Positions 15,721 to 31,010 of a stretch of DNA of 56,168 nucleotides are shown in pieces. The position numbers and the translations under genes are program-made. The stretch comes from a virus (taxonomy: Duplodnaviria > Caudoviricetes): the IMG/VR virus record IMGVR_UViG_3300032295_002548, positions 1 to 56,168 of that record; one strand, written 5' to 3'. Position 1 is the stretch's first letter. The number at the start of each line of letters is the position of its first letter. The notes under the pieces are model-generated. The model worked only from the letters and a program-made list of their open reading frames with translations, was not told the DNA's origin and did no database searches.

Positions 15721-15846
15721 TCAGCCCCCGATTGTCAAACTTGTTTTCCTCTTGTACTGGGTGTTGCGCTTAGCGGCTAGGCGCAACGACTTCTGCCAGC
15801 TATGGCGGGAAATGTTCTTGGGCTTCGATTCGGTGACGCCTTTCAT
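15721..15846 (-). CDS. Possible 41-aa basic peptide
   Basis: TGATG-coupled to TerL; MKGVTESKPKNISRHSWQKSLRLAAKRNTQYKRKTSLTIGG. Confidence 0.35.
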   Translation of the reverse strand: MKGVTESKPKNISRHSWQKSLRLAAKRNTQYKRKTSLTIGG

Positions 15847-17483: not shown

Positions 17484-17489
17484 TGCGTA

Positions 17490-17520
17490 TTGACAATGGG
17501 GAAAAGATCCCCATCGTCAA
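17490..17520. promoter_or_regulatory. Palindromic divergent promoter/operator between terL and the Arc-like gene
   Basis: TTGACAATGGGGA-AAAGA-TCCCCATCGTCAA (13-bp arms, 1 mismatch); a -35-like hexamer at each end. Confidence 0.7.
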
Positions 17521-17523
17521 GAC

Positions 17524-17673
17524 ATGGCTCGCAAGCTCCCATTGCAGATCCGCGTTGACCCTCGGCTGGAGTCCGGCTTGAAAAAGCTCGCCCGAAAGAG
17601 CCGTCGCTCGATCACCGCCGAGGTGAACCACATCATCGAGTCCTTCCTGTCCATTCACTACAAACCCGAATAA
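17524..17673 (+). CDS. Arc/Mnt-like ribbon-helix-helix DNA-binding protein (49 aa)
   Basis: Not in the ORF track. MARKLPLQIRVDPRLESGLKKLARKSRRSITAEVNHIIESFL fits the Arc pattern. Confidence 0.8.
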   Translation: MARKLPLQIRVDPRLESGLKKLARKSRRSITAEVNHIIESFLSIHYKPE

Positions 17674-17677
17674 CGCC

Positions 17678-17827
17678 ATGCCGTTCAAATCCGAAGCGCA
17701 GATGCGCTACCTGTACGCCAAGGAACCTTCCGTCGCCAAGCGGTTCACCGAGGAAATGAAGAGCGAAGGTAAGTCCTTCAAGGCGCTGCCCGAGAAGGTG
17801 GCCAAGAAGAAGAAAAAGAAGTACTGA
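17678..17827 (+). CDS. Small basic protein (49 aa)
   Basis: Not in the ORF track. MPFKSEAQMRYLYAKEPSVAKRF...LPEKVAKKKKKKY. Confidence 0.75.
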   Translation: MPFKSEAQMRYLYAKEPSVAKRFTEEMKSEGKSFKALPEKVAKKKKKKY

Positions 17828-17829
17828 CC

Positions 17830-18120
17830 ATGAACAAGGGCGTACGTGACTACATCCTGAAGAACGCGGGCGTGGAGGGCTACAACCGCCCGAAGCGCAC
17901 GCCGGGGCACCCGAAAAAGTCCCACATCGTCGTGGCCAAGGAAGGCTCGCAGGTGAAGACCCTCCGCTTCGGCCAGCAGGGCGTGTCCGGGTCGCCCAAA
18001 AAGTCGGGCGAAAGCGCCTCCTACGCCGCCCGGCGCAAGTCGTTCAAGGCGCGTCACGCGAAGAACATCGCCAAGGGCAAGATGTCGGCCGCCTACTGGG
18101 CCGACAAGGTAAAATGGTGA
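17830..18120 (+). CDS. Basic protein of unknown function (96 aa), nucleic-acid-binding candidate
   Basis: VK..RFGQ.G...RRKSFKARH...SAAYWA..V.W motif, widespread in aquatic viruses. Confidence 0.75.
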   Translation: MNKGVRDYILKNAGVEGYNRPKRTPGHPKKSHIVVAKEGSQVKTLRFGQQGVSGSPKKSGESASYAARRKSFKARHAKNIAKGKMSAAYWADKVKW

Positions 18121-18128
18121 GGTGATGC

Positions 18129-18320
18129 TTGTTTCCTGAAAGCCCTGTCAGCCGGAAGATCGACGAACTGGTTCGCCAGTTCCGGCCCATGAAGGAGATC
18201 TGCGCCACCCTGCGCGTGCAGCGGGCGCAGGTGGCTGCCCGCATCGCCCGAGGCGGCTACGTCCGGCACTACATCACGGCGGACGAGCTGCGCCTGCTCA
18301 AGGAGCGGCGGAAACTTTGA
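18129..18320 (+). CDS. Small HTH-like protein (paralog of 19444..19656)
   Basis: MKEICATLRVQRAQVAARI helix-turn-helix pattern; ungapped alignment to the paralog. Confidence 0.6.
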   Translation: MFPESPVSRKIDELVRQFRPMKEICATLRVQRAQVAARIARGGYVRHYITADELRLLKERRKL

Positions 18321-18322
18321 CC

Positions 18323-18568
18323 ATGACAACACTGATCAACCGACTGCTGCAGCCGTTCGGCCTGCAGCTTTACACCGTGGACCGCCTGACCGAGTTCGGA
18401 AAGGCTTGGGCTCGCGACCAAGAGACCAAGCAGCTGGCCGAGATGGAAGAGAAGCTCTTCGCCCTGCAGGTGCGCCTCTCCCGGTCGCACTCCAAGCTGC
18501 ACTACTACAAGAAGCGGGCCGGCTGCTCCCGGGTAAACAACTCGCGCCACCCGCAGGAGGCGATCTGA
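18323..18568 (+). CDS. Hypothetical coiled-coil protein
   Basis: Tightly packed plus-strand ORF with phage-like codon use. Confidence 0.55.
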   Translation: MTTLINRLLQPFGLQLYTVDRLTEFGKAWARDQETKQLAEMEEKLFALQVRLSRSHSKLHYYKKRAGCSRVNNSRHPQEAI

Positions 18569-18570
18569 CC

Positions 18571-18933
18571 ATGGGCTACTCGTTCAACCCCATGCCGGAT
18601 CCCCAGACCAACGAGCATGGGGACATGGTATCGCTCCGCGACTACCTCTCCCTGCAAGCCCAAGCCCATAATCTGGCTAGGCTCCTGATGGAGGGCAGGG
18701 ATCTGGTCGAGGAGTACAGCCGGGCGAACGCCGCAGGCATCGCCCGCGAAGAGGCGTTGCGCGCCACGATCGCCGAACTGCAACGCGAGAACCTTGAGCT
18801 GCGGAGTGCAGCAGTTGAGGTATGCGCCCTTGCTCGGGTATGGGTAACGGTATGGGGTGACAAGCTGTCAGCCGGAAGCATCAAGCGGTTAGGGGAGTTG
18901 GAGAAAAAAATCCTGAAGGAAACGCAGCCGTGA
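18571..18933 (+). CDS. Hypothetical coiled-coil protein (120 aa; start corrected)
   Basis: MGYSFNPMPDP...HGDMVSLRDY then heptads; starts 2 nt after the upstream stop. Confidence 0.6.
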   Translation: MGYSFNPMPDPQTNEHGDMVSLRDYLSLQAQAHNLARLLMEGRDLVEEYSRANAAGIAREEALRATIAELQRENLELRSAAVEVCALARVWVTVWGDKLSAGSIKRLGELEKKILKETQP

Positions 18934-19241
18934 GCGCCGACATCGCCCAATCCAAACTCGAAGAGTACCGAACGGACGCCTTGGCATTCCGCTATTTGTG
19001 GAGCATGCTGCGGATGAAGTACTCGGTGGCTTGGTTCCTGTTGACGCCACAAAATCGGCAGCTAGCGGACTTCTTGGAGGATCACCTGCCGGAAGGGTTT
19101 GAGGACATGCGGAAGGATCAGATGGAACGGCACCTCGTTGCCATGATGCAGAGAATCAGTCGGGAATGCGCCCGCAGCATGCGTCGGACGATGAAGAAGA
19201 GACCGGCAACGAAGCGTGCGCGCAAGGGGGAGAAGTCATGA
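18930..19241 (+). CDS. Hypothetical protein
   Basis: GTGA overlap with the previous gene; 103 aa with a basic tail. Confidence 0.55.
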   Translation: MSADIAQSKLEEYRTDALAFRYLWSMLRMKYSVAWFLLTPQNRQLADFLEDHLPEGFEDMRKDQMERHLVAMMQRISRECARSMRRTMKKRPATKRARKGEKS

Positions 19242-19438
19242 GCGAAGACGCCCACCTCACCCCGGACCTGAACAAGGCGCTCGACGCCCTGTTCGTTTCC
19301 ACCGGCAAGACGCCGGAGCTGATCTACGACCCCGACGACAAAGTCCTCGTGGAGATGGTCAACCAAGTGCGCGATAAGTTGGCGGAAGAGGCCAAGCGTA
19401 AGCATGAACTCGTCTGGAAATACCGGAACCATAAATAA
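19238..19438 (+). CDS. Hypothetical protein (66 aa; start corrected)
   Basis: ATGA overlap; MSEDAHLTPDLNKALDALF. Confidence 0.55.
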   Translation: MSEDAHLTPDLNKALDALFVSTGKTPELIYDPDDKVLVEMVNQVRDKLAEEAKRKHELVWKYRNHK

Positions 19439-19443
19439 ACGCC

Positions 19444-19656
19444 GTGAGCTATCCTCGTAACCCCAAGGGTGAAGCAATTTGCCGAATGCTGATGGAGATG
19501 CAGCCCACAAAGGTGATCTGTCAGCAGCTGAAAGTGGACGGCAGCGTGGTCCGGGGCCAGATGAGGCGACTTGGAATGCTGCGCGTCAGCCTGACTGCTG
19601 AGGAGCGCAACAAGATCGCGGGCTGGAGAGGCATTGACCGAAGGTTCGTACCTTGA
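19444..19656 (+). CDS. Small HTH-like protein (paralog of 18129..18320)
   Basis: PTKVICQQLKVDGSVVRGQM helix-turn-helix pattern. Confidence 0.6.
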   Translation: MSYPRNPKGEAICRMLMEMQPTKVICQQLKVDGSVVRGQMRRLGMLRVSLTAEERNKIAGWRGIDRRFVP

Positions 19657-20129
19657 TCCACGCCTACACCACCCACACCGGGCAGCTGGCGATCCGACGG
19701 CGGAACCAGACCGCGGAGTTCTACGCCTTCGTCCACGGGTTCGGCCTGAAGGTCGATCCCAACGACCTCTGTCCGATCGCGATCACCTTCACGCGGCAGG
19801 GCCGCCCGGAGGCGGTGGCCATCGTGCGCAACCGCAACGAGACGCTGGAGGAGTTCAACTACCCGACGCTCATGGTGACCGCGGCCAAGGTCCACCAGCT
19901 GGTGGAGACGGCGCAGGCGCGGAAGACCCGCGGCATCATGATCGCCGGCATGGCCGACGGGGCGATGCTCACGTGGGAGGTCGTGAACCGGGACGGCACC
20001 TACCACCTGCACGACACGCGGAACAGCGAGACCATGGCCGACTGCCTCCGGTCCGGACTGGTCGTCCGGGAAAACATGTACTTCCCCCTCGACGCCGCCA
20101 CGGTCATCCCGGCCACGGTGCTGATCTGA
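19653..20129 (+). CDS. Hypothetical protein, possibly a degenerate PD-(D/E)xK fold
   Basis: 158 aa; PIA.....AVAIVRNR....YPTLMV..AK pattern lacking the acidic catalytic residues. Confidence 0.45.
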   Translation: MIHAYTTHTGQLAIRRRNQTAEFYAFVHGFGLKVDPNDLCPIAITFTRQGRPEAVAIVRNRNETLEEFNYPTLMVTAAKVHQLVETAQARKTRGIMIAGMADGAMLTWEVVNRDGTYHLHDTRNSETMADCLRSGLVVRENMYFPLDAATVIPATVLI

Positions 20130-20135
20130 CCGCGG

Positions 20136-20786
20136 TCAGACCTGATTGACCGTCAGGATCACGCTGGGCGTCTCCGGGCGGGTGGGCGACGTAAGGGCGT
20201 TAACGTGCTGCAGCGATACCGCTAGGTCGCTGGAACTCCACACCAACTGGACGTAGTCGCCTGCGGCCATCTTCTCGAAGATGTTCACGTAGAAGATCAG
20301 GGCGCCCGCAGTGCCGCCGTGGCTCTGCGGCACCGAGATCTGCGAGCAGCTGGCCGGAATGTCGGTGCCGTTCTTGCGGAACCAGAACCACGCGTCGTGG
20401 ATCTGCACGTTGGTCGAGGTGACCTGCACCGACACCGCGATGTTGTACACCCCGGCGTGGGCGACGGTGACGCGGTTGCCCGAGACCACGCTCACCCCAT
20501 TGTTATCGGCGTTGGCGTTGCCGAGGTTGACGACGTAGGCGGTCGTCGTGCTGGCAATCGTCTGGTCGGTCATGTCCCAGAACGCACCCCAGTAGCCGAT
20601 CGACCCGTTGTCCCCGGTAGTGGACACGGTCAGCGTGGACACGTCCTTCGTCTCCAGCTGGGTGAACTTGATCCCCTGACCGGCGACCAGATCCAGCTGG
20701 CTCTGGGTCTTCCAAAGCGACCCGTTCAGGAACAGCTTCAGGCTATCGGCGATCCGCGTCAGCGTCTGGGTGCGCAAGAAGTTCAT
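20136..20786 (-). CDS. Orphan structural-like protein with a C1q/TNF-like beta-sandwich (216 aa)
   Basis: YWGAFWDMTDQT...AGVYNIAVSVQ...WFRKNGTDI...AGDYVQLVW; a lone minus-strand gene in a plus-strand block. Confidence 0.7.
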   Translation of the reverse strand: MNFLRTQTLTRIADSLKLFLNGSLWKTQSQLDLVAGQGIKFTQLETKDVSTLTVSTTGDNGSIGYWGAFWDMTDQTIASTTTAYVVNLGNANADNNGVSVVSGNRVTVAHAGVYNIAVSVQVTSTNVQIHDAWFWFRKNGTDIPASCSQISVPQSHGGTAGALIFYVNIFEKMAAGDYVQLVWSSSDLAVSLQHVNALTSPTRPETPSVILTVNQV

Positions 20787-20870
20787 CGCCGGGGCAGTCT
20801 GGGGGTGGGCTTGACACGTGGTCAACAGGTTATTGGAATCCCCGACGTGCCAACGGGTTTTGGAGCCAAC

Positions 20871-21362
20871 ATGAAGGGCGGACGCCCCAAGGGGAGTTAC
20901 AACAAACCGCGCCCTATCGACGTCGAGGCGGCGATCGAGGCGGCAGCCGACAACGCCCTGACCGGCAAGCCGATCGTGCCCGGCATGCTCAAGGGGCGGA
21001 AGAGATCCATACCATCCAAGGCCGACTGCGAACGGCTGACCCGCTCGCTGGGGGTCTCCATGGAAGAGTTCAACCAGCGGTTGGGCGAGAAGCTGGCCCT
21101 GATCTCCGACAAGATCGCCACCCGGATCGAGGAGAAGCTGGACAACGACGAGTTCAAGGCAGGTGAACTTGGGTTCATCTTCTCGGTGTCCGAGGACAAA
21201 CGCCGCGCACTGGACGTCCGAGCCCAGATGGGGGCGTCGCAGGTCAACATTCAGGTCAACAACTACGGCGACAAGAGCCGGGACGAGATCATTGCCGCCC
21301 TCACCCCTGAGTCCATGCGCCCGGCGGAGAAGGCGGAGATCGACCCGAACGACGTCATATGA
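20871..21362 (+). CDS. Terminase small subunit candidate (163 aa; start corrected)
   Basis: GRPKGSYNK N-terminus, helical core and VNIQVNN C-terminal strand, all typical of TerS. Confidence 0.55.
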   Translation: MKGGRPKGSYNKPRPIDVEAAIEAAADNALTGKPIVPGMLKGRKRSIPSKADCERLTRSLGVSMEEFNQRLGEKLALISDKIATRIEEKLDNDEFKAGELGFIFSVSEDKRRALDVRAQMGASQVNIQVNNYGDKSRDEIIAALTPESMRPAEKAEIDPNDVI

Positions 21363-21823
21363 GCAAGAAAGCCCAGAACAAGCTGATCATCTCCAGAAAA
21401 CATCTTCTCCGGAAGATGCTAGTCAATGGCGAGATCGAGGAAGCGGGGATGCGGGCAGCCGAATGGGGAATCGAGCTTTCAGACGTGCGAATTAACGCTT
21501 TTCACAATGCTCCGGCCGAAGTCATCGACCCGGATAGCCTGAAAACCATGCAGGAAGAGCTGATGCCCGCTACTCCACCCCCGCCTGCCGCATTACCATC
21601 TCCAGAGGTGGTAGTAGAGCTGAAGGAAAAGTGGCCGCCGCTGGTAGATCTGGTGATTACCGCCCACCCCATCAATGCCCGGTTGGTGACTGCCAAGCTG
21701 CCAGATCAAAGAAAGGCGTTAATGTGGCGTAGAGGCGGGCGTTTCCCCGTTGGCTGCATGGTTCGCGCCCGTTTATGCGATCAAGTAGGCCCGGAAGCCT
21801 ACTACGAGCCGGCCTACGAGTAA
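21359..21823 (+). CDS. Hypothetical protein (154 aa)
   Basis: ATGA overlap; Pro linker followed by a small beta-rich domain. Confidence 0.6.
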   Translation: MSKKAQNKLIISRKHLLRKMLVNGEIEEAGMRAAEWGIELSDVRINAFHNAPAEVIDPDSLKTMQEELMPATPPPPAALPSPEVVVELKEKWPPLVDLVITAHPINARLVTAKLPDQRKALMWRRGGRFPVGCMVRARLCDQVGPEAYYEPAYE

Positions 21824-22139
21824 GGAAGTGTTTGGCTGGTAGGCGGTTAGTGCGGCAGAAGTTGTAAAGTCGCACTGTAAAAAATCACATGGGGGGCTGG
21901 ATTGATAATATGCGCGCCCACCGCCGCTGGTGCGACCCCCTCCCCCCCTCTAAGTCGTTGATGGTGAGGGGGTTACGCACGTGTGATGCCACAATCCCTA
22001 TTATGTTAAGCAGCCTCGCATATGCCTGTGTGTGAAGGACTTACATAAAAACCGCGGTCGTCGCCGCGTCCCTCTGCCAGAGGTGGGGTGGCAGGTGCAA
22101 CCGATCGCCCTGCACCCCTTCATCACCTACCGGCCAGCC

Positions 22140-22253
22140 CTGCCACACTGCCACACTGCCGGGCTCCTTCAACCTCTTATCCTCCGGCCCTTCGCCTTCA
22201 TCGTCTCTTCCCCTACCTCTTGAAACCAGTGTGGTAGTGTGGCAGTGTGGCAG
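22140..22253. repeat. Inverted 8-bp iteron arrays; candidate replication origin
   Basis: CTG(CCACACTG)x2CC at 22140-22160 faces CAGTGTGG-TAGTGTGG-CAGTGTGG-CAG at 22227-22253 across a pyrimidine-rich spacer. Confidence 0.6.
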
Positions 22254-22299
22254 AAAGACGTTTTCCCCCTCTGAAGTGACACTTTTCGTCAAGTTGAGC

Positions 22300-22328
22300 T
22301 TGACCGGAGAACCTGTTTCGGCGATGAT
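22300..22328 (+). promoter_or_regulatory. Sigma70-like early promoter candidate
   Basis: TTGACC-17 nt-GATGAT; a further TTGACA at 22341. Confidence 0.5.
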
Positions 22329-22375
22329 GCTGGCCGTTCTTTGACATACCCACGACAAGCCCACCGGGCAGAACG

Positions 22376-22797
22376 GCGATGCCGGCGAAACGCCTGCCGC
22401 CCGACCCGGTGCCAGCTTGCGGTGGACCCCCGACCAGCCGGTGCCTTGAGGGCGACCGGCACGGATCGGCCGCCGGCGGCGCAGGGATGCGCCCCGGGCA
22501 AGACGGCCGGACGACCGGAGTGAGTAGCTCCGGAAATCACGTAGGGGGAGGACGGCGACGCGGTGCCAGCCTGCAGGGGGGTGCCGCTTCCGTTCCCGAT
22601 AAGGGGTGCCAGCCGCGAGAGCGACCGCGCCCCGTCCTGTGGTTCCTGCGATGCCGACGACACGTCTGCCGCAGGGAGGCCGAGAGAGGCGATGCCGACG
22701 ACACGTCTGCCGCCTGAGCGCCGACCATACCCGCGATGCCGACGACACGTCTGCCGTGGAGCCGACCGCCCTGCGATGCCGACGAAACGTCTGCCGC
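22376..22797 (+). repeat. 25-bp hairpin direct repeat: four clustered copies plus one isolated copy
   Basis: GCGATGCCGACGACACGTCTGCCGC consensus at 22648, 22689, 22733 and 22773; variant at 22376. Confidence 0.92.
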
Positions 22798-23006
22798 AAT
22801 GCGGAGAGGGGACGGGGGGCAGGGTAGCGGATTGGCCCCACGGTCCCCCTCGGAAGCGGGGAGCGGATGGAAGCGGGGAGTGCCCCGCGAGGGTGCAGGG
22901 TCGCCAGACGACGCTGCACCCGCCGCCTTGACCGTTGCGCCCTCGGCACCGAGGGACGCAGAACGACGCACCTTCCCCTGCCGGGCGTGAATGCCACACG
23001 CCCGGA

Positions 23007-23090
23007 GGAGTCAATGCAGCCATCGCCGCACCCTGCGGCGATGCCGGTTCCAAGCCCGGGCCGCCCTGTCGGGCGATGCAGAGGAACTCC
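23007..23090 (+). ncRNA. Twister self-cleaving ribozyme, type P1 with P3 and P5 stems
   Basis: P1 GGAGU/ACUCC; C^AA; P2 UGCA/UGCA; GC; P3 CAUCGCCGCA/UGCGGCGAUG; P4 CCGG-UUCCAAGC-CCGG; P5 CGCCC/GGGCG; GAGGA. Both pseudoknots (GC/GC, UCC/GGA) can form. Confidence 0.88.
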
Positions 23091-23112
23091 AACCCGCCAA
23101 CACGTCCCCACG

Positions 23113-23340
23113 ATGAACGCCACCCTGTCCCGCTCCGCCTCGTACCGCCTCGCCGTCTCCGCCAAGGCCGACCTCTGGCTCCCCGCCAACGGCGGCACCG
23201 AGGAGCCCTTCACGACCCGCAACGGGGTCCGCCTGCTCTACTGCTTCAACCCGCGCCTCGGCCGGCACGCTTACCTCGACCTCTCCTGCGACCACATCCT
23301 CGACGACGACGACGCCTTCCGCGCCCTCGGCCTGATCTAA
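23113..23340 (+). CDS. First early protein, hypothetical (75 aa; start corrected)
   Basis: MNATLSRS...W.PANGGTEEPF..R.G.RLLYCFNP..GRHAYLDL..D.IL; preceded by the leader motif. Confidence 0.75.
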   Translation: MNATLSRSASYRLAVSAKADLWLPANGGTEEPFTTRNGVRLLYCFNPRLGRHAYLDLSCDHILDDDDAFRALGLI

Positions 23341-23391
23341 CCCACCAACCCGTTTTCCCGTTAGTATCCAAACCAACAACACGTCATCCAC

Positions 23392-24438
23392 ATGTCCTCG
23401 TCCACTGCCTCGTACCTCGCCTCCCTCATCGCGGCCAAGCGCCGCGTCCTGTTCGTCGGCCCGCCGGGCTGCGCCAAGACCGCCCGCATCGCGGCGGCTG
23501 CCGCCGCCGCCGGTCACGACCTCGTCGTGATTCGCCTCTCGCTCGCCGAGCGGGTGGACCTCGGCGGCTGCTTGGTCCCCGACGCCGCCGGCGGCGTGAC
23601 CCGCGCCCTGCCGCTGGAGACCCTGCACCGCCTGCGCACCACCACCCGGCCGACCATCCTGCTGCTGGACGACCTCGGCCAAGCGCCCATCGACGTGCAG
23701 GCCAGCGCGATGGCGCTCTTCGACAGCGGCGCGCTGCCGGCTCACGTCCTGATCTGGGGCGCGACCAATCGGCCGGGCGACAAGTCCGGCGTGACCGGCC
23801 TGTGCGAACCGCTCCGGTCCCGGTATCACGTCGCCTTCAGCGTCGCCACGCCGGAGTCCGAGGAGAAGTCCGACGGCTCCACCTTCATCGCGCCGTGGGC
23901 CGACGAGGTCGCCGCGTGGTGCGACTGGGCCAGCGGCGAGGACTTCGCGCCGGAGATCATCGCGTGGCACCGCAGCACGACGGGCCGCACGCTGTACGCT
24001 TGGAAGCCGGTCAGCGACCCCGCGCTGCGGCTGCCCGACTTCCGCTCGTGGGAGACGGTCGGCCGCTTGTGGTCGGCCGGCCTGCGTGACCTGCGCACCG
24101 TCGGCGCGGCGATTGGCAAGCCTGCCGCCGCTGAGTTCCTCGCGTTCGCTGCGCTGGCCGATCAGCTGCCCACGCCGCAACAGGTGTGGCTCGATCCCGA
24201 CGGCGCGACGGTGCCGACCGATCCCGCTGCGCAGTACTTGATCGCGGCGATGCTCGGCCGCGCTGCGGAGCCGAAGTTCGCGACGCAGCTCGTCACCTAC
24301 TTCTCGCGGCTGCCGCGAGTGATGGGCGCTTACTGCGCCCGGGACGCTTACAAGCGGCTCGGCGCGAAGCTCGCCGGCAACGGCGCGTGGCAGCAGTGGT
24401 TCCTCGCGAACCGCCAGCTGTTCGAGACCGGCACCTAA
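23392..24438 (+). CDS. AAA+ ATPase (MoxR/dynein-related type)
   Basis: Walker A GPPGCAKT, Walker B LLLDD, sensor GATNRPGD, Arg finger PLRSR, RSWE motif. Confidence 0.88.
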   Translation: MSSSTASYLASLIAAKRRVLFVGPPGCAKTARIAAAAAAAGHDLVVIRLSLAERVDLGGCLVPDAAGGVTRALPLETLHRLRTTTRPTILLLDDLGQAPIDVQASAMALFDSGALPAHVLIWGATNRPGDKSGVTGLCEPLRSRYHVAFSVATPESEEKSDGSTFIAPWADEVAAWCDWASGEDFAPEIIAWHRSTTGRTLYAWKPVSDPALRLPDFRSWETVGRLWSAGLRDLRTVGAAIGKPAAAEFLAFAALADQLPTPQQVWLDPDGATVPTDPAAQYLIAAMLGRAAEPKFATQLVTYFSRLPRVMGAYCARDAYKRLGAKLAGNGAWQQWFLANRQLFETGT

Positions 24439-24440
24439 CA

Positions 24441-24492
24441 GGCCGAAACGCCCGCAAGGGCTTCGCACCGTCACGCGGTGCCTGATGAGGCC
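24441..24492 (+). ncRNA. Hammerhead ribozyme, type II
   Basis: GGCC-GAAA-C-GCCC(GCAA)GGGC-UUC^-GCACCG(UCACG)CGGUGC-CUGAUGA-GGCC; complete catalytic core with one C.U mismatch at the base of stem III. Confidence 0.85.
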
Positions 24493-24530
24493 AGATTGCC
24501 CCGTATCCAAACCAACAACACGTCCAACAG

Positions 24531-25343
24531 ATGAAGACCAAGACCACCACCACCGCTCCGTCCCTGATCGCCCGCAAGGCGGTCATCGCCTCGTTCACGT
24601 CGTCGCAGTGGCGCACCGTGCGCCGCCACGCCGCCGAGACCAAGGCCGAGAATGCCCGGCACGGCCTCACCGACGAGGCCCGCGTCGATGTCAAAGTGTG
24701 CAACGACCCCGCGCTCGAAGAGGCGGCGCGGATCATCACCGCAGCCCGCGCCGATCATTACCGGCTCACCGTGCCGGCCGCCGACCGCGGGATGAGGCTG
24801 CTCCCCGGCGCTCGCCAGCTGGAGCACGCCGACACCCTGCAGGCGCACGGCGTGAAGTTCCAAGCCGCTGTCGCGCAGTTCCTCGCTCGGTACGAGACGC
24901 TCCGCGCCGACGCTCCGGCCCGGCTCAACGGCCTGTACATCGCGAGCCACTGGCCCGACCTCGACCGCGTGCGCGGTTCGTTCGCGCTCTCGTGCCGCTA
25001 CCTCCCGGTGCCGGCGCTCGGTCAATGGGACGAGTGGATCGCCGAGTCGGCGAGCAACGCGACCGAGGAGATTCGCACGCGGATCGGCGAGGCGCTGCGC
25101 GCCGCTGCCGAAAAGCTGGCCGATCCCAAGGCGATCTTCCGCGACTCCCTCGTGGGCAACCTCGTCGATATCCTCAACCTCGCCGACGATCTCAACATCG
25201 CCGGCGACCCGGCGGTCGCCGACCTCGTCGCGCAAGCCAAGGCGCTCGCCAACGTCGAGCCCGACCAGCTGCGCGAGGACAAGACGCTGCGCGCCAACAC
25301 CGCCGCCCGGGCGGCCGACCTGTGCTCCCTGTTCAGCCTGTAA
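24531..25343 (+). CDS. DUF3150-like helical protein of the AAA+/vWA module
   Basis: 270 aa; HY.LTVP..DRG.RLLP, F..RY, A..RLNGLY....WP, IFRDSLV.N motifs; lies between the ATPase and vWA genes. Confidence 0.65.
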   Translation: MKTKTTTTAPSLIARKAVIASFTSSQWRTVRRHAAETKAENARHGLTDEARVDVKVCNDPALEEAARIITAARADHYRLTVPAADRGMRLLPGARQLEHADTLQAHGVKFQAAVAQFLARYETLRADAPARLNGLYIASHWPDLDRVRGSFALSCRYLPVPALGQWDEWIAESASNATEEIRTRIGEALRAAAEKLADPKAIFRDSLVGNLVDILNLADDLNIAGDPAVADLVAQAKALANVEPDQLREDKTLRANTAARAADLCSLFSL

Positions 25344-25368
25344 TCCAAACCATCAACACGTTTCCCGT

Positions 25369-26586
25369 ATGAACCCGATCAACAAAGCAACCCTGCTCCG
25401 CATCGACCGCGCCCGCTGGTGGGCGCTGTCCTCTCCCGCCGCCGTGTTTTACGGCAGCCTCGCCACCCACCTCGTCGATGTCATCGACGAGTCCATCCCG
25501 ACCGCCGCGACCGACGGCAAGCGCATCCTCTGGAACCCGACGTTCGTCGCCGGGCTCACCGACGAGGAGGTGCGGTTCGTCCTGCTCCACGAGACGTTGC
25601 ACTGCGCACACGCCCACTTCGACCGGCTCCCGCTCAATGAGCAGGGCAACAAGGCGGGCGACTACGCCATCAACCGCGTGCTGCAGGGCATCGCCGGCAT
25701 CGCGATGCCCAAGGACGGCCTGCTCGACCCGCGCTTCGACAACCTCGCCGAGGAGGAAATCCTCGCCGCCCTCGGTCGCGAGGCGCAGCCGCAGCCCGGC
25801 AACGGCAAGCCCTCGCCCGGTGCGGGTGGTGGCAAGCCGCAGCCCCAGCCCGGCAAGGGCCAGCCTGACGACGGACAAACTGGTTCGCCCGATCCCGGCG
25901 GCTGCGGTGGCTTCGTCGCCCCCGATAAGACGCCCAACCCGCAGGGCAAGACGCTCGCCGAGAAGTGGGAGCAGGCCGTGATCCAAGCCGAGTTCACGGC
26001 GAAGACCCTCGGCAAGGGCAACGCGCCGGCCGACCTCAAGCGCATCCTCGACCGCATCCGCGCCACCGACGTGGACTGGAAGCGCGAGGTCGCCGACTTC
26101 GCTCGGACCGCCATCAGCGCCAGCGCCGACTGGTCCCGCTCGACCCGCCGGATGGCGACCGCGCCGGTGATCTACCCGCGCCGCAAGCGCGACCGCGTGG
26201 GCTGCCTGCTCGTGGTGCGCGACACGTCGGGCAGCATCGACAACAAGCTGTGCGCCGAGTTCTCGGCGCAGGTCACGCAGGTCATCGCCGACCTGCAGTG
26301 CCGGGCCATCGTGCTCGACGTGGACACCCGGCTGCACGCCGAGTACCGCCTTGAGCCGGGCGACGAGTGCCCCAGCAACGCACGCGGCGGTGGCGGCACC
26401 GCCTTCACCCCGGCGTTCGACCGGCTGGCCGAGTTGCAGGACGAGGGCGAGGACATCGCCGGCGTGCTGTACCTGACCGACCTCGACGGTGAGTTCCCCG
26501 ACAACCCGCCCGACGTGCCCACCCTGTGGGTGGCGTACGGCACGACGCGCGCCGCCCCGTTCGGCCGCACGCTGCACGTGAAGTGA
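25369..26586 (+). CDS. DUF2201-type putative metallopeptidase plus vWA domain protein
   Basis: TAATDG, HETLH (HExxH), NKAGDYAIN, G/P/Q linker, MIDAS DTSGS, GGGGTAF, YLTDLDG. Confidence 0.88.
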   Translation: MNPINKATLLRIDRARWWALSSPAAVFYGSLATHLVDVIDESIPTAATDGKRILWNPTFVAGLTDEEVRFVLLHETLHCAHAHFDRLPLNEQGNKAGDYAINRVLQGIAGIAMPKDGLLDPRFDNLAEEEILAALGREAQPQPGNGKPSPGAGGGKPQPQPGKGQPDDGQTGSPDPGGCGGFVAPDKTPNPQGKTLAEKWEQAVIQAEFTAKTLGKGNAPADLKRILDRIRATDVDWKREVADFARTAISASADWSRSTRRMATAPVIYPRRKRDRVGCLLVVRDTSGSIDNKLCAEFSAQVTQVIADLQCRAIVLDVDTRLHAEYRLEPGDECPSNARGGGGTAFTPAFDRLAELQDEGEDIAGVLYLTDLDGEFPDNPPDVPTLWVAYGTTRAAPFGRTLHVK

Positions 26587-26635
26587 GGTTTCCCACCCTG
26601 CCCATCCGCCCCGTGCGGGTGGGCAGTAGGGAGCC
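26587..26635 (+). other. Long intergenic stem-loop (processing or stability element)
   Basis: CTGCCCATCCGC/GCGGGTGGGCAG 12-bp stem plus a lower GGTTTCCC/GGGAGCC stem; no U tract. Confidence 0.55.
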
Positions 26636-26671
26636 CTGACTCCATCAACAACACAACAACACGTATCCACA

Positions 26672-26785
26672 ATGAAACGCTCCGACTACATCACCACCGC
26701 CCTCTGGCTGCTCGCCTGTGCGGTGTTCGCCATCTGGTCCGCCGCCCTCGTCATCAACTCCCTGATCAACTCGTTCTCCCGATGA
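26672..26785 (+). CDS. 37-aa single-TM peptide
   Basis: Not in the ORF track. MKRSDYITTALWLLACAVFAIWSAALVINSLINSFSR; leader motif upstream and ATGA coupling downstream. Confidence 0.7.
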   Translation: MKRSDYITTALWLLACAVFAIWSAALVINSLINSFSR

Positions 26786-27459
26786 GCACCACCCCATTCG
26801 ACCTCGACGCCCACCTCGCCGCCGCCGATCCAGTCCACGCCCGCGAAGCCCGCTTCGGCTGGCACGAGAATGCCCTGCGCATCCTGCTGCCCCTCGGCTG
26901 GACGGTCGAAGACCTCGCCGAGCAAAGCCGTCCTCGCTGCGCGGCGTGCCCGCTCCTCCGCGTGACGCGCCGCAAGCGTAACGACCACGATCTACGTGCC
27001 AAGTCTACCCGGCTGCGGTTCTGGGCGGATGCCGAGGGGCGGAAGCTCCATTACAGCGACGCAGGCATCGCCGAGACGTGGGTGGAGCTGGTCATCGACG
27101 TGACTTCACCCCGCGCTCAATGGTCCGCGAATCGCTGGGTCACCCACGCCACGTTCGGCTTGGCCGAGATCATCGCCAAGGCGCAGGCCATCAAGGAGCG
27201 GGAGGAGCGGGAGGAGCGGGAGTCCGAGGCTTACCTCGCGTCCCTGCTGGTCGGCACCGGCTACACCAAGGAGGACATCGCCAATCAATTCGGCGGGTTC
27301 CACGCACGCGTCGGCACCGATGATCACGGCAAGCAATTCTTCCGTCTCAACGTGGGCAACAAGTTTCTCAGCCCGCGTTCCCGCTGGTCGAACGAGGAGA
27401 AGACGCGGAAGGTGTGCAACCTGCTCACGTTCCTACAGCAAGAAGGATGGAACGAGTGA
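26782..27459 (+). CDS. Hypothetical early protein (225 aa)
   Basis: Coupled ORF; no recognisable motif. Confidence 0.65.
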   Translation: MSTTPFDLDAHLAAADPVHAREARFGWHENALRILLPLGWTVEDLAEQSRPRCAACPLLRVTRRKRNDHDLRAKSTRLRFWADAEGRKLHYSDAGIAETWVELVIDVTSPRAQWSANRWVTHATFGLAEIIAKAQAIKEREEREERESEAYLASLLVGTGYTKEDIANQFGGFHARVGTDDHGKQFFRLNVGNKFLSPRSRWSNEEKTRKVCNLLTFLQQEGWNE

Positions 27460-27827
27460 AGTTCCAGCTGCTGCAAATCGGGATGACCTTCAACCGGGAA
27501 CAGAACCGGCACGAGTTTACCACGATCACGACCACGCCGTTGCGAAACCTCGATGATCCTAACCGCCCCAAGGTGTCCGAGGTGTCGATGATTTTCGATA
27601 CCTCCAGCCCGATCCCGCAGCTGGTCTACGCCAGTCACTTGTTCAGGCTCGACCCCACGGATCCCGACGGGGTGATGGGGATACCGTGGGATCTGGAAGC
27701 GTTCCGAGTGCGGCTGCCGCATTCGTTTTGGACGGACTTGAAAGGCAACCTGCGCGACGCCGGCTTCGCCATCGTGATGGAAGCACCCGACAACGTGTTG
27801 CCGCATCAAACTACGGCGCAGGATTGA
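27456..27827 (+). CDS. Hypothetical early protein (~123 aa)
   Basis: GTGA overlap with the previous stop; exact start uncertain. Confidence 0.55.
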   Translation: MKFQLLQIGMTFNREQNRHEFTTITTTPLRNLDDPNRPKVSEVSMIFDTSSPIPQLVYASHLFRLDPTDPDGVMGIPWDLEAFRVRLPHSFWTDLKGNLRDAGFAIVMEAPDNVLPHQTTAQD

Positions 27828-27857
27828 CATCCACCGTTCGTCCGTACCTCCCTTGGT

Positions 27858-27929
27858 CTGGTCTCAGCGGAGTGGATAACCGCTGACGTGTTGTAACCCT
27901 CGCCATTCTTCGGAGTGGCGAGGGTTTTC
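27858..27929 (+). ncRNA. Candidate antisense sRNA (hairpin, single-stranded seed, terminator)
   Basis: TTGACA at 27824; UCAGCGG(AGUGGAUAA)CCGCUGA hairpin; seed UGACGUGUUGUA complementary to the early leaders; 5' end is estimated. Confidence 0.6.
27895..27928 (+). terminator. Rho-independent terminator ending the early operon/sRNA
   Basis: AACCCUCGCCAUUC-UUCG-GAGUGGCGAGGGUUUU. Confidence 0.85.
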
Positions 27930-28007
27930 GCTTTACACGTGGCCGCTTGAGAGGGAGACGAGGGAATCCATCCTCGCCGTGTGGCGCGGTAAATCTACAA
28001 CACGTTT

Positions 28008-30440
28008 ATGAAAACCCGGTACTTCGGGGGCACTCCCGACAACCTCGGCGTCGTCCGTGCGCTGCCCGCCGAGACGTTCACCGACCTCGTATCCACCCAC
28101 CTGAGACAGCCCGTGTCCCTTGGCGTGACCAAGGCGCAGCTGCTGGCGATGCCTCCCGCCGAGGCGACCAAGGCCAAGGCCACCGACTACCTTGTCCCCG
28201 CCACGTTCAAGACCGACACGTCGCAGCGCCGCACTGAGCTGGCCGTCGTCGCGAACCTCATCTTCATCGACATCGACGACGCCATCGACGCCCGTCGTCT
28301 GCTCGCCACTGGCTTCGGCTCCCTGCTGGGCCGACTCGACTCGGTCGTCTACCACACTGCCCGCTCCACGCCGGCCGCGCCCCGGCTGCGGGTGGTGGTG
28401 TCCGCCGAGGAGGTGCCCATCGCCCGTTACGCCGAGGCCGTGCGCCTGATCGCCGCCCTGCTGGGGATGGAGGACGTATCACGGGAGTCGCTCGTCCCGG
28501 TGCAGCCGATGTTCCTGCCAACCAGTTTTGCCGATGATACCACCGACCCGGTGGTGCATTGCTCGACCAAGGGGGAAGCGTTCGTCCTGCCTCTCGCCTC
28601 CACCCTGTCGGAACTCCCCGCTGGCGAGGCCGACGCGGGTGACGTGTCCCCGCTGGAGAACCTGCGCCCTCGGATGGAGGGCGTGAACCCCGAGGATATC
28701 CGCCCCGCCCTGCAGGTCATCGACCCCGATTGTGCGATGAAGCGGTGGGTGGAGATCGGGATGGCGCTGAAGCACCAGTTCGGGGACGAGGGCTACGCCC
28801 TGTGGGACGACTGGTCCGCCCGGGGCAAGGCCAAGTACCCCGGCTCCGATGCAACCCGCCGCCGGTGGGATTCGTTCGCCGGCCAGACTTCCAACCGCGT
28901 GCCCGTCACGCTGCGCACCGTCCTCCGCATTGCCGAGGAGTCAGGATGGGACAACAAGTTGGCCGGTGAGAACGTCTACTCCCGCACCGTGGACTGGATC
29001 ACGTCGTCAACCCGTTCGACGGAAGAGCTGCTCGACCACGCGGCCGGCCGCATCTCGGCGATCTCCCCGCTGATCGGTCCCCTCAAGCAAGCTGCGCTGG
29101 TGGGCACGCTCGCCCGCACCCTGAAGAACCGCGGCATCCAAGGCGTGACCGCCACCAGCCTGACGCAGGTGGTGAAGGACAACATCAGCGAGAGTACCAA
29201 GCCAACGCAGCCTCCGACGTGGGCATCTGGGGTGGTGTTCGTCACAGCGAGCAACCTGTTTTACCGTTACGTGGACAACCGCAAGCTGAAGCCGGAGGTG
29301 GTGGACCTGATCTATCGTTCACCCGATCCAGAGAAGCGGCCCCGTGAGTGGCTGATCCACGACGCCAACATCAAGGTGGTGGAGAACCTGCGCTACGACC
29401 CCGAGACCAAGGCCCGGGTGGTGATGTACGATGGCGTGCCCTTCTGCAACACGTACCGCCCGACGTACCCAGCGCCCGACTACGGCCAGCTGCAGGAGGT
29501 GCTCGACTTCTTCAGCGCGCACGCCGACCACGTGTTCACCTCGCAATGGAGCCGCACGATGTTCGACTTCGGCGCGTATCTGGTGCAGCACCCGGGCAAG
29601 AAGATCAGGTGGGCACCGCTGGTGCAGAGCGGGGTGGGTGCGGGCAAGGGGTTGTGGGCTGGCCTGCTCACCCGGGCGCTGGGCTTCAGCAACGTGCAGC
29701 GTTTGTCTGCTGAACACGTTCTTGAGGCGACGTACAACTCGTGGGCCAGCGGCTATCAACTCACGGTGATGGACGAGGTGTACAACGTGGGGGCCAACAG
29801 CCACCGCACGATGAGCAAGCTGAAGCCCAGCATCTCGGACGACTTCGTGTCGGTGCGTTCATTGTACGAACCTGTTCAGACGGTGCCGAACATAATGAAC
29901 TTCCTGATGTTCACGAACTACCACAACTCGCTGGCCGTACACGACAGCGACCGCCGGTACTTCGTGATCAAGTCCCCGCTTCAAACCAAGGACGACATCC
30001 TCGCCCTTGGTGGGCCGGCCTACTTCGAGCACGCGTACAAGCTGTTGTCCTCTCACGCCGCCGGGATCCGCGCCCTGTTCGAGAGCTGGCCCATCTCCAA
30101 GGACTTCCCCGCTGATGGGCGTGCCCCCATCACGCCGTTCCTCGGTGAGCTGGCTGCGGCCACAGCCTCCCCGCTGGCAGCCGCCGTGCAGGACGCGCTC
30201 GACGACCGGCCGCACGCCCTGCTGCAGCCCGACCTCCTGTCGCTGCCCGTGCTGCGCGCTCATCTCCCCGCTGATAGGTTGTCCCACTTCACCGATCAGG
30301 GTCTGGCCTCGGTGCTACGGGAGAAGGGGTTCGTCTCCGCTGGTCGGCACTCGTTCGACGGGGTGCGTCACGCCCTGTGGGTGCGGGGATTCAAGGGTGA
30401 TCCGGTGGCTGAGGCGAATGCCCGGCGTGAAGTTTTGTGA
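28008..30440 (+). CDS. Primase-helicase (AEP prim-pol, PriCT-2, SF3/DUF5906-type helicase)
   Basis: IFIDID, YHT..S....PRLRVV, WVEIGMALK..G..LWDDWS, Walker A GVGAGKG, Walker B VMDE, FTNY, DRRY. Confidence 0.9.
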   Translation: MKTRYFGGTPDNLGVVRALPAETFTDLVSTHLRQPVSLGVTKAQLLAMPPAEATKAKATDYLVPATFKTDTSQRRTELAVVANLIFIDIDDAIDARRLLATGFGSLLGRLDSVVYHTARSTPAAPRLRVVVSAEEVPIARYAEAVRLIAALLGMEDVSRESLVPVQPMFLPTSFADDTTDPVVHCSTKGEAFVLPLASTLSELPAGEADAGDVSPLENLRPRMEGVNPEDIRPALQVIDPDCAMKRWVEIGMALKHQFGDEGYALWDDWSARGKAKYPGSDATRRRWDSFAGQTSNRVPVTLRTVLRIAEESGWDNKLAGENVYSRTVDWITSSTRSTEELLDHAAGRISAISPLIGPLKQAALVGTLARTLKNRGIQGVTATSLTQVVKDNISESTKPTQPPTWASGVVFVTASNLFYRYVDNRKLKPEVVDLIYRSPDPEKRPREWLIHDANIKVVENLRYDPETKARVVMYDGVPFCNTYRPTYPAPDYGQLQEVLDFFSAHADHVFTSQWSRTMFDFGAYLVQHPGKKIRWAPLVQSGVGAGKGLWAGLLTRALGFSNVQRLSAEHVLEATYNSWASGYQLTVMDEVYNVGANSHRTMSKLKPSISDDFVSVRSLYEPVQTVPNIMNFLMFTNYHNSLAVHDSDRRYFVIKSPLQTKDDILALGGPAYFEHAYKLLSSHAAGIRALFESWPISKDFPADGRAPITPFLGELAAATASPLAAAVQDALDDRPHALLQPDLLSLPVLRAHLPADRLSHFTDQGLASVLREKGFVSAGRHSFDGVRHALWVRGFKGDPVAEANARREVL

Positions 30441-30485
30441 AGAAAGGTGTTGACTGCTGAACAGAAACTGTATCTGTTCAGAGCC

Positions 30486-30590
30486 ATGACAATCTTTCTC
30501 TCCATCTGCGCCGTCGTCATCGTGATCGCCGTTGCTTATGCCCTGCTCGCCGTGATCGGGGCCGAGGACAACGACGAGGACATGGACTGA
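30486..30590 (+). CDS. 34-aa single-TM peptide with an acidic tail
   Basis: Not in the ORF track. MTIFLSICAVVIVIAVAYALLAVIGAEDNDEDMD; TTGACT 30 nt upstream. Confidence 0.6.
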   Translation: MTIFLSICAVVIVIAVAYALLAVIGAEDNDEDMD

Positions 30591-30600
30591 ACTTTCCCCC

Positions 30601-30780
30601 ATGAAAAAGAAATCAACTGTTAACTCGGCTGGTAACTACACCAAGCCATCGATGCGCAAGCGTCTCGTCGCGAAGGTCAAGGCCAGCAGCAAGGGCGGCA
30701 AGCCCGGCCAATGGTCCGCCCGCAAGGCGCAGATGGTAGCCAAGGAATACAAGGCGAAGGGCGGAGGCTACACGTCATGA
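30601..30780 (+). CDS. DUF5872-like basic protein, N-terminal half (59 aa)
   Basis: Not in the ORF track. NYTKPSMRKRL...KGGKPGQWSARKAQMVAKEYKAKGGGY. Confidence 0.75.
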   Translation: MKKKSTVNSAGNYTKPSMRKRLVAKVKASSKGGKPGQWSARKAQMVAKEYKAKGGGYTS

Positions 30781-31010
30781 AGAAGCAACAGAAGAGCCTC
30801 AAGGATTGGACCGACCAGAAGTGGCGTACGTCCAGCGGGAAGCCCAGCCTCAAGACTGGCGAGCGTTACCTCCCGGACAAGGCGTGGGCCAACCTGACCG
30901 CCGCCGAGAAGGCCGCGACCAACGCCGCCAAGAAGAAGGGGATGCGTGCCGGCAAGCAGTTCGTCGCGCAGCCCAAGTCCATCGCCAAGAAGACTGCCCG
31001 CTTCCGTTAA
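30777..31010 (+). CDS. DUF5872-like basic protein, C-terminal half (77 aa)
   Basis: QKSLKDWTDQKWRT..G...ERYLP.KAW..LT..EK.ATN..K......GKQFV; ATGA overlap. Confidence 0.75.
   Translation: MKKQQKSLKDWTDQKWRTSSGKPSLKTGERYLPDKAWANLTAAEKAATNAAKKKGMRAGKQFVAQPKSIAKKTARFR

Follow-up and report, generated by a model that had tools for sequence, protein, structure and literature searches.

A G-poor CAAC leader at a fixed distance from start codons of non-structural genes in a lineage of freshwater phages

The stretch of DNA analysed here (the window, 56,168 bp) is the whole of the IMG/VR virus record IMGVR_UViG_3300032295_002548, with a CheckV completeness of 100%. Five consecutive genes in its non-structural block are each preceded by the octamer CAACACGT, seven nucleotides (N7) before the ATG, and the original prediction took this octamer for a regulon-wide element acting at translation initiation, the repeats of which could also serve as recombination points. 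Comparison with related loci revealed that the octamer belongs to a larger unit, a bipartite leader of about 24 nt with two CAAC boxes 8 nt apart. This leader is a real, conserved and lineage-wide feature of gene starts, for which the sequence patterns make a role in translation plausible. Its anatomy, spacing, strand bias and conservation, its lack of complementarity to ribosomal RNA (rRNA) and the positions of gene-exchange junctions at its copies were observed directly; we infer from them that the leader is transcribed and read by ribosomes, and which component may read it.

The leader in the window and in related phages

The predicted arrangement of the octamer, N7 and ATG was recovered at 23098, 23377, 24516, 25354 and 26657, giving five copies on the forward strand, none on the reverse strand and none for a backwards control pattern. 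Since the five N7 spacers (ccccacg, catccac, ccaacag, ttcccgt and atccaca) all differ, it is their length and not their sequence that is conserved. Two further details of the prediction were also borne out, namely that the 22-nt stretch GTATCCAAACCAACAACACGTC is identical at 23364 and 24503, in leaders 2 and 3, and that a sixth copy of CAACACGT lies at 27998, 2 nt ahead of the primase ATG at 28008. The window contains 19 copies of CAACACGT in total, compared with 2.12 expected from dinucleotide shuffles, with none of 100 shuffles reaching 19. The generalised form CAACNNGT-N7-ATG has 8 matches in the window against 0.32 expected, of which 6 are at gene starts of this cluster; gene-start copies in the structural module of the window were not found. 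The claim that overlap-coupled genes lack the motif did not survive, as the 225-aa gene at 26782 carries the variant CAACTCGT-N7-ATG at 26767. The open reading frames (ORFs) of the cluster follow in the order 75-aa ORF, AAA ATPase (phrog_1297), 270-aa ORF, a protein with DUF2201_N and DUF2201 (VWA-like) domains, 37-aa hydrophobic ORF, 225-aa ORF and 123-aa ORF, and the leaders are placed as follows.

23085 to 23115, plus strand: leader 1, core CAACACGT at 23098-23105, N7, ATG 23113 of the 75-aa ORF
23338 to 23356, plus strand: second leader type, CAACCCGT at 23346-23353, single copy with no gene behind it
23364 to 23394, plus strand: leader 2, core at 23377-23384, N7, ATG 23392 of the AAA ATPase (phrog_1297)
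24503 to 24533, plus strand: leader 3, core at 24516-24523, N7, ATG 24531 of the 270-aa ORF; first 22 nt as in leader 2
25341 to 25371, plus strand: leader 4, core at 25354-25361, N7, ATG 25369 of the DUF2201_N and DUF2201 (VWA-like) protein
26635 to 26674, plus strand: leader 5, core at 26657-26664, N7, ATG 26672 of the 37-aa hydrophobic ORF; an insertion hotspot in relatives
26767 to 26784, plus strand: variant core CAACTCGT, N7, ATG 26782 of the 225-aa ORF, within the coding sequence of the 37-aa ORF (ATGA overlap)
27990 to 28010, plus strand: primase leader, TAAATCTA followed by CAACACGT (27998-28005), two nucleotides (N2) and ATG 28008

Homology to the related locus L091 ends at 23116, immediately after ATG 23113, which supports 23113 as the true start of the 75-aa ORF. 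Leader 4 contains the TAA stop codon of the gene upstream. The window leaders have 1-3 G residues between positions -25 and -1 and no AGGAG, and the ACA motifs present in the leader are CAACAACACGT. The description of these leaders as A/C-rich and lacking an SD (Shine-Dalgarno) sequence is correct for the five genes but does not set them apart, as most ORF starts of the phage are C/A-rich without an SD. Similarly, the genes do belong to a non-structural and replication module, whereas their designation as early was an assumption. The gene lists of the window used in the SD survey and in the accessibility test below were curated by hand, the ad hoc gene caller having dropped real genes and kept shadows. 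Ten further copies of CAACACGT lie inside ORFs in the sense orientation, nine of them in the frame xxC-AAC-ACG-Txx (Asn-Thr). In nine of the ten the Asn-Thr pair is followed by Tyr, Phe or Ser, and 16 of the 19 copies in the window are oriented with transcription.

Related loci were collected with the DUF2201 protein as marker, 691 homologues of which were found at E<=1e-20. Single-protein searches for related viral loci, with the DUF2201 protein or the primase, gave no match; alignment-seeded searches yielded 26 IMG/VR loci, 34 genome loci and 80 of 227 confirmed metagenome loci. DNA runs containing the region carry freshwater or lake labels, the runs listed for 22600-28100 including none of RNA, and the clade carrying the leader, made up of uncultured freshwater (lake) phages, is large and widespread. 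In the closest relatives (L082, L083, L091 and L109, with 88-97% identity in the marker protein) the octamer is kept at every orthologous leader covered, which amounts to five leaders in L082, L083 and L109 and four in L091, one of the L109 copies having a six-nucleotide spacer (N6). One exact copy each, at N7, is present in L084 (74% marker identity), where it is found only at leader 1, and in L085 (71%). The flanks vary while the core holds: the N7 sequence is altered in leader 4 of L083 and leader 1 of L084, and an upstream TAGTAT is replaced by CAGCAT or AAGTAC in close relatives. The N2 arrangement at the primase is kept in L083, L109 and L129 (59% marker identity), and in L092 in the form CAACACAT. 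In more distant relatives the corresponding position is occupied by CAACCTGT, CAACTTGT, CAACTAGT or CAACCCGT, from which it follows that the octamer is the version that a single lineage has of a more general leader. The term regulon-wide was therefore an overstatement, and the conserved N2 copy at the primase is also at odds with a spacing-dependent role.

Spacing was surveyed over 75 related loci (634 kb). Here CAACNNGT preceded ATG 53 times at N7, an ORF of 40 codons or more following in 48 of these cases, and 20 times at N6, while the other spacings between N0 and N13 gave 0-11 matches each and the reverse strand at most 6. Among 206 dereplicated contexts ATG occupied the N7 position in 32, the next commonest triplet accounting for 10, with GTG and TTG outside the top eight. 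The 27 dereplicated N7 contexts gave a consensus of YCAACC at -24 to -19, CAAC-N-Y-GT at -15 to -8, a T/C-rich 7-mer and ATG, with C at -23 in 74%, A at -22 and -21 and C at -20 and -19 in 78% each, T at -7 in 74%, a C-rich stretch from -6 to -2 and A at -3 in 41%. Between -25 and -10 of the same contexts, 15 of the 16 positions have no more than 11% G (the exception, -18, has 22%), compared with 20-30% upstream of -30, and the 8-nt spacing of the CAAC boxes corresponds to no helical repeat. Independently of these, 81 dereplicated G-poor leaders selected by G content only showed A at -14 (65%), -13 (74%), -6 (47%) and -3 (49%), C at -12 (58%), and G only at -9 and -8 (27% and 15%). The core is homogeneous within each genome, being NCGT in the six N7 leaders of the window and mostly YTGT in L033, L087, L088, L090 and L124. 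On L033, a MAG-binned contig (MAG, metagenome-assembled genome), positions 3223-3272 carry GTATCCAAACCAACAACACGT, with 21 nt identical to a window leader; the 22-nt stretch between octamer and ATG there is a second, diverged leader unit, which places the leaders in tandem.

Some apparent copies were set aside. Those of CAACACGTCTCACCATG in L010, L026, L028 and L132 lie within tandem paralogous small genes, where they encode Q-H-V, and are not independent support. An exact search of IMG/VR with 18 nt of the leader gave one match, L006, which is attributed to chance as it lies inside a coding region and has no blastn or tblastx match. The extended pattern CAACC-N3-CAACCTGT-N7-ATG gave 10 matches in IMG/VR, close to the chance level; their contexts are all unrelated, their spacers contain G and they are accompanied by 0-1 further copies. 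The small-gene family itself forms arrays of 4 to 8 tandem paralogous ORFs (~80-120 aa) in L012 (7933-9456) and L013 (8234-10546), each ORF beginning with ATGAC(A/C/G)ACC and overlapping the preceding stop, with shorter versions in L010, L026, L028 and L132. These arrays look like the product of rapid expansion of one gene family at a shared genomic position.

Initiation, transcription and alternative readings

The reading preferred here, tentatively and with confidence that falls somewhat short of even, is that of an SD-independent, unstructured translation-initiation leader on a polycistronic mRNA. This clade of freshwater siphophage-like viruses places the leader before those non-structural genes that are translationally uncoupled from the gene upstream. 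Being G-poor and hence unstructured, the ACA- and CAAC-rich leader would act in the mRNA, where it may hold the 30S subunit, probably via protein bS1 or the platform rather than via the 16S tail, and thereby place the AUG 7 nt downstream in the P site. Internal cistrons of a polycistronic transcript, which would begin at a promoter near 22300 and end at a terminator at 27895-27926, could in this manner initiate independently.

This reading is favoured because of the fixed distance to ATG, the use of ATG only, the G depletion, the accessibility of the start region and the 8-nt box spacing, and because a variant lies inside an upstream ORF (26767), leader 4 extends over an upstream stop codon and a single terminator follows the cluster. 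The A peaks, in addition, match determinants of initiation in Flavobacterium johnsoniae, and ACA motifs of the enhancer type are present. Depletion of G on one strand implies an RNA unable to fold, and between -20 and +5 the predicted unpaired probability was higher in the 6 motif genes (0.66) than in 38 other genes (0.51; Mann-Whitney p=0.015). That the element acts at translation initiation, as claimed earlier, is thus consistent with the ATG coupling, the sense-strand bias, the G depletion, the accessibility and the A peaks, the role itself being one that we infer. A more far-reaching version, considered unlikely, would have the bipartite CAAC leader serve as a sequence-specific, fixed-geometry SD substitute read by bS1, a platform protein or a phage-encoded adaptor instead of the 16S tail, providing a private translational channel for non-structural genes, in a host whose own genes rely on SD or unstructured leaders, while the same repeats double as a recombination substrate. 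Should ribosomes or an adaptor indeed read the leader, it would constitute natural, strictly spaced, SD-independent start-site selection, and could be a usable expression part for Planctomycetota-like hosts.

Transcription signals around the cluster comprise the following.

22300 to 22328, plus strand: promoter candidate, sigma-70-like TTGACC-17-GATGAT, in a 1.3-kb non-coding region
27895 to 27926, plus strand: intrinsic terminator, 14-pair stem with T-rich tail, closing the cluster before the primase

The terminator is the only strong intrinsic one on the plus strand of 17000-31000, and the promoter-like element recurs by pattern in L083, L084 and L125. A consensus scan found no sigma-70-like site at any leader. 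The position profiles of the leaders have no conserved -35 upstream, and a TANNNT-type -10 was not seen in the 81 leaders (T at -12 6%, A at -11 30%, T at -7 41%). Canonical hexamers do occur, both at 22300-22328 and upstream of the 16S gene of the candidate host described below, where the sequence is TTGACG-18-TAGTAT. The TAGTAT upstream of leader 2 was considered as a -10 element, being the same as the -10-like hexamer of the host 16S gene; it is not conserved in the relatives at 88-97% identity, and the changes in these closest relatives indicate that it is not under selection as a -10. A promoter of the extracytoplasmic function (ECF) type was rejected, as only leader 1 has GGAAC upstream (judged by eye against a -35/-10 consensus). 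Hairpins are found in the spacers before leaders 3 and 5 only and have no T-tracts; those before leader 3 (spacer IG2) are absent from L082 and a run X6 contig, which have 7 nt in their place. Taken together, these signals around and within the cluster favour one polycistronic transcript with internal leaders, as far as sequence features can indicate this.

Within the same non-coding region, the 22300-22346 element holds in its spacer AACCTGT-N7-ATG and a 6-codon mini-ORF, MMLAVL (MMWAVL in L083 and MVWAVL in L084), and this conserved element could be a promoter or a leader peptide. Four tandem 25-mers GCGATGCCGACGACACGTCTGCCGC, the last with GAAACGTC, lie at 22648-22797, spaced 41, 44 and 40 nt, with a degenerate copy at 22377. 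Three copies of the 25-mer are present in L086 (68% marker identity), and other relatives have different dense repeats at the same place; the 25-mers resemble iterons or an array of protein-binding sites, and may be an origin. Co-variation between 25-mer and leader core was sought and not seen, as L086 keeps the 25-mer with a leader core of CCTGT or CCCGT. A 21-nt inverted repeat, CTGCCACACTGCCACACTGCC, occupies 22140-22160 and 22233-22253, the arms being 95% complementary and 72 nt apart.

The best genome match, a contig of 3.7 kb with 66% identity, was binned in a Phycisphaerales MAG (G001), the 16S rRNA of which (1484 nt) ends in the canonical anti-SD tail GGATCACCTCCTTTCTA (CCTCC). Start regions of this candidate host were represented by 96 conservatively chosen starts, filtered on GC1>GC2 against antisense shadow ORFs, and an SD-like 4-mer is present at -18 to -5 in 35 of the 96 against 14 of the 96 in a control interval. 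C at -1 and -2 is common to the phage leaders (52% and 64%) and the MAG genes (67% and 53%). The G001 loci (L070-L079, L081 and L174-L193) have a strong CC-ATG context, with T at -1 in 2% and SD-like 4-mers at about one third of starts. Planctomycetes are listed among the phyla with small fractions of SD-preceded genes in the part of the survey of Nakagawa et al. (2017, PMC5397173) that concerns them.

Several observations weigh against the translation-initiation reading. A Planctomycetota host is only weakly indicated, by a single binned contig of 3.7 kb. Ribosomal-protein genes of the MAG have purine-rich, SD-like leaders, a G-poor leader occurs at only 2 of the 96 MAG starts and is hence not a host-type translation initiation region (TIR), and CAACNNGT-N7-ATG occurs 12 times in the 3.6-Mb MAG, three of these on the 3.7-kb phage-like contig; the motif is not enriched in the candidate host genome beyond chance. 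The N2 copy at the primase, conserved down to 59% DUF2201 identity, cannot use the same geometry as the N7 copies, and in L033 the 21-nt leader is farther upstream, with a 22-nt spacer from octamer to ATG. The 10 in-ORF copies exceed the 1.58 expected from codon permutation and the 2.70 expected from synonymous resampling (0 of 300 simulations each), an excess that a purely TIR role leaves unaccounted for. In addition, the predicted difference in accessibility is modest, and the spacing is strict here, whereas known ACA enhancers have no strict positional requirement.

Pairing with the 16S rRNA would be one account of a motif whose 3' end is 7 nt from the AUG of genes without an SD. The location is indeed of the SD type, N7 being found in five of the five window copies and N7 (53) and N6 (20) dominating in the 75 loci. 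However, the comparison with the host 16S 3' end that had been proposed as a check went against such pairing: the tail is canonical in the candidate host MAG, with no complementarity to the motif, no complement of the octamer is present in the 1484-nt 16S and a 6-mer complement occurs only at position 393, so that the motif is not an alternative SD acting by base pairing. The phage group itself also uses GGAGG-type SDs before other genes, for instance the primase in L010 and L026. An alternative SD is thus extremely improbable, and the leader is a property of the phage lineage, neither a pairing-type alternative SD nor a host-wide initiation signal. It is also quite unlikely that the leader is a transcription signal, either an alternative-holoenzyme promoter for leaderless mRNA or a fixed 5' end, primary or processed, of mRNAs with short leaders. 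The preponderance of N7 over N6 resembles a -10-to-start-site distance, ATG is the only start codon, as leaderless mRNAs require, and there is no SD; hairpins stand ahead of leaders 3 and 5, and the primase is the first gene past the terminator, with TAAATC 2 nt upstream of its motif copy. Against this, there is no TANNNT-like -10 and no conserved -35, the -10-like TAGTAT of leader 2 is mutated at key positions in the relatives at 88-97% identity, the IG2 hairpins are missing in L082 and the run X6 contig, and one terminator serves the whole cluster. At the primase, a transcription start 7 nt past the motif would fall within the ORF, scans of ~40 window ORFs with Pfam and PHROGs brought up neither a sigma factor nor an RNA polymerase, and the strand-asymmetric depletion of G over ~16 nt, together with the C-2/A-3 context, is a feature expected of RNA.

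The leader could also be the site of a specific trans-acting factor, such as an RNA- or DNA-binding protein, encoded by the phage or hijacked, or a small RNA, that switches the non-structural genes together, comparable to the translational repressors of T4 or to Hfq/Crc control via CA motifs. This would suit the restriction of the motif to one lineage (chance level in the MAG, and 10 chance-like matches in IMG/VR, none of them a G-poor leader), the homogeneity of the core within a genome (NCGT versus mostly YTGT), the motif-like sequence in the spacer of the conserved 22300 promoter candidate and the ACACGTC that the tandem 25-mers at 22648-22797 have in common; the conserved N2 copy at the primase also fits an operator better than a ribosome-positioning signal. 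An operator, however, needs no fixed 7-nt distance to ATG, boxes 8 nt apart would be unusual for a dimer bound to duplex DNA, L086 keeps the 25-mer despite a different leader core, and the ~40 scanned ORFs include no candidate factor except an Arc-like ribbon-helix-helix (RHH) protein, which lies beside a palindrome of its own at 17484-17523. A trans-acting factor is on balance considered unlikely. A further alternative is that the copies are repeats without any function in themselves, which spread as cassettes were duplicated and through gene conversion and were held alike by concerted evolution. Leaders 2 and 3 do share 22 nt, insertions in L083 are flanked by leader duplicates and gene-scale junctions cluster at leaders. 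Yet core and spacing persist at 59-74% DUF2201 identity (L084, L085 and L129), the generalised form persists at ~50% identity while spacer and flanks diverge, the N7 length survives multiple substitutions and the position-specific profile recurs in 27 dereplicated contexts, which makes functionless repeats very unlikely.

Gene exchange at the leaders and other features of the window

The proposal that the repeats act as recombination points, together with the suggestion that relatives be examined for gene swaps at the motif, was followed by comparing 23000-28000 of the window with L082, L083, L084, L091, L109 and contigs of four DNA runs. It was supported, in that six of the seven gene-scale differences have at least one junction at a leader.

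Event 1, L083: additional ORF downstream of the 75-aa gene, with a 22-nt direct repeat of the CAACCCGT-type leader on either side; this leader is single copy in the window (23338-23356)
Event 2, L083: additional ORF ahead of the 37-aa gene, lying between 39-nt duplicates of the leader with one base difference
Event 3, L109: two extra ORFs at the site of event 2, before the 37-aa gene, each with its own variant leader
Event 4, L091 and a contig of run X2: 75-aa gene replaced, homology breaking at 23116 and 23347
Event 5, L084: the two alternative first genes present as a tandem, with a leader variant ahead of each
Event 6, L082 and a contig of run X6: hairpin spacer 24437-24498 replaced by 7 nt, ending at the edge of leader 3
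Event 7, L083 and a contig of run X6: 123-aa gene missing, junctions at 27459 and 27813 (L083) or 27859 (X6), with no leader there

The flanking duplicates of events 1 and 2 are the trace expected from recombination between leader copies, near-identical copies between genes offering patches of homology for gene insertion, loss and replacement. The alignments support the view that leaders mark points of gene swapping between phages, although selection for intact gene-plus-leader units could explain part of the junction pattern. For the annotation of these phages, the motif offers a rule by which start codons and module boundaries can be called.

Structural and packaging ORFs, including those for large virion and baseplate proteins, are on the minus strand at both ends of the window, and non-structural genes occupy the plus strand from ~17524 to 38380.

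15846 to 17483, minus strand: terminase large subunit

Past the leader cluster are a PriCT_2/DUF5906 primase, a DUF2800 nuclease, an Enc34-type single-stranded DNA-binding protein, a family A polymerase and an SNF2 helicase. The primase call rests on the PriCT_2 and DUF5906 domain matches, and the only matches from a phage database were distant ones to the primase (24-28% identity). The sole regulator-like match among the scanned ORFs is the weak one to the 49-aa Arc-like RHH protein (17524-17673); the near-perfect palindrome at 17484-17523, which contains TTGACA, lies between this ORF and the divergent terminase gene and is probably an operator with a divergent promoter region. No Rfam family reached its gathering score over the whole window, and no tRNA was found in it. 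A lone minus-strand ORF of 229 aa (20136-20825), with a weak BclA_C-like match, stands within the plus-strand block, and L083 and L091 have ~1.3 kb of extra DNA at 20134/20135, pointing to a variable, moron-like site.

Comparison with known systems

A literature search, with supplements outside its scope, returned nothing relevant on the motif or on phages of Phycisphaerae. The A/C-rich composition of the leader, with ACA just upstream of the initiation region, is like that of the ACA/CA-rich enhancers of enterobacteria, where, according to the available text of Yang et al. (2014, PMC3879156), ACA motifs enhance translation, ACAA repeats work without an SD and ACA is found in S1 ligands obtained by SELEX; for the leader such an effect is a prediction. 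The enhancers, as described there, work alongside an SD and tolerate changes in position, whereas the leader is strictly spaced (N7 or N6) and has no SD. Initiation in F. johnsoniae offers a second point of comparison, since adenines at -3, -6, -12 and -13 are given by Baez et al. (2019, PMC6847099), in the portion of that paper considered here, as experimentally supported positive determinants of SD-less initiation. The leader resembles such Bacteroidetes regions in its enrichment of A at -3, -6 and -12 to -14, its low structure and its lack of an SD. In the Bacteroidetes, however, as that portion presents it, this is a genome-wide property of the host with a sequestered anti-SD, whereas the leader is phage-specific and both the candidate host and the phage group also use SD-like leaders.

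With respect to gene exchange, the nearest parallel is provided by the promoter-early stem-loops (PeSL) of T4-type phages, cassettes of which were reportedly treated by Comeau and colleagues in 2014. As outlined by Arbiol et al. (2010, PMC2839356), these combine sigma-70-like promoters with terminator stem-loops, and are, like the leaders, repeated regulatory sequences between small non-essential genes where indels and replacements occur between close relatives. Unlike PeSL, the leaders have no promoter hexamers, and hairpins precede only two of the five, have no T-tracts and are dispensable in L082 and run X6. Leader-mediated cassette exchange is hereby documented outside the T4 group.

The closest analogue of the leader is the start-associated sequence (SAS) of Cluster K mycobacteriophages, reported by Pope et al. 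(2011, PMC3203893) as an asymmetric repeat of 13 bp, located 3-7 bp ahead of the start codons of non-structural genes, biased towards ATG and, as far as the consulted text of that paper extends, absent from host genomes. Its function was still said to be in need of experimental verification in a 2025 paper (PMC12699233, as excerpted). On these partial accounts, both elements are short asymmetric repeats near a subset of starts, in one orientation, in the non-structural half and with strong ATG bias, and both have positions conserved beyond what rRNA pairing explains. The SAS consensus GGGATAGGAGCCC, as given there, has an AGGAG SD core 3-7 bp from the start, whereas the leader has no SD and no similarity to this consensus; it is instead G-poor and bipartite, with two CAAC boxes at N7 or N6 and no complementarity to rRNA. 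Inverted repeats like those of the extended SAS (ESAS) were not seen at the leaders. Since the leader has the anatomy of SAS but neither its AGGAG core nor similarity to its consensus, it is not classed as a member. Start-fixed motifs are thus known from the Cluster K phages in combination with an SD, and the leader described here has the same anatomy without complementarity to rRNA.

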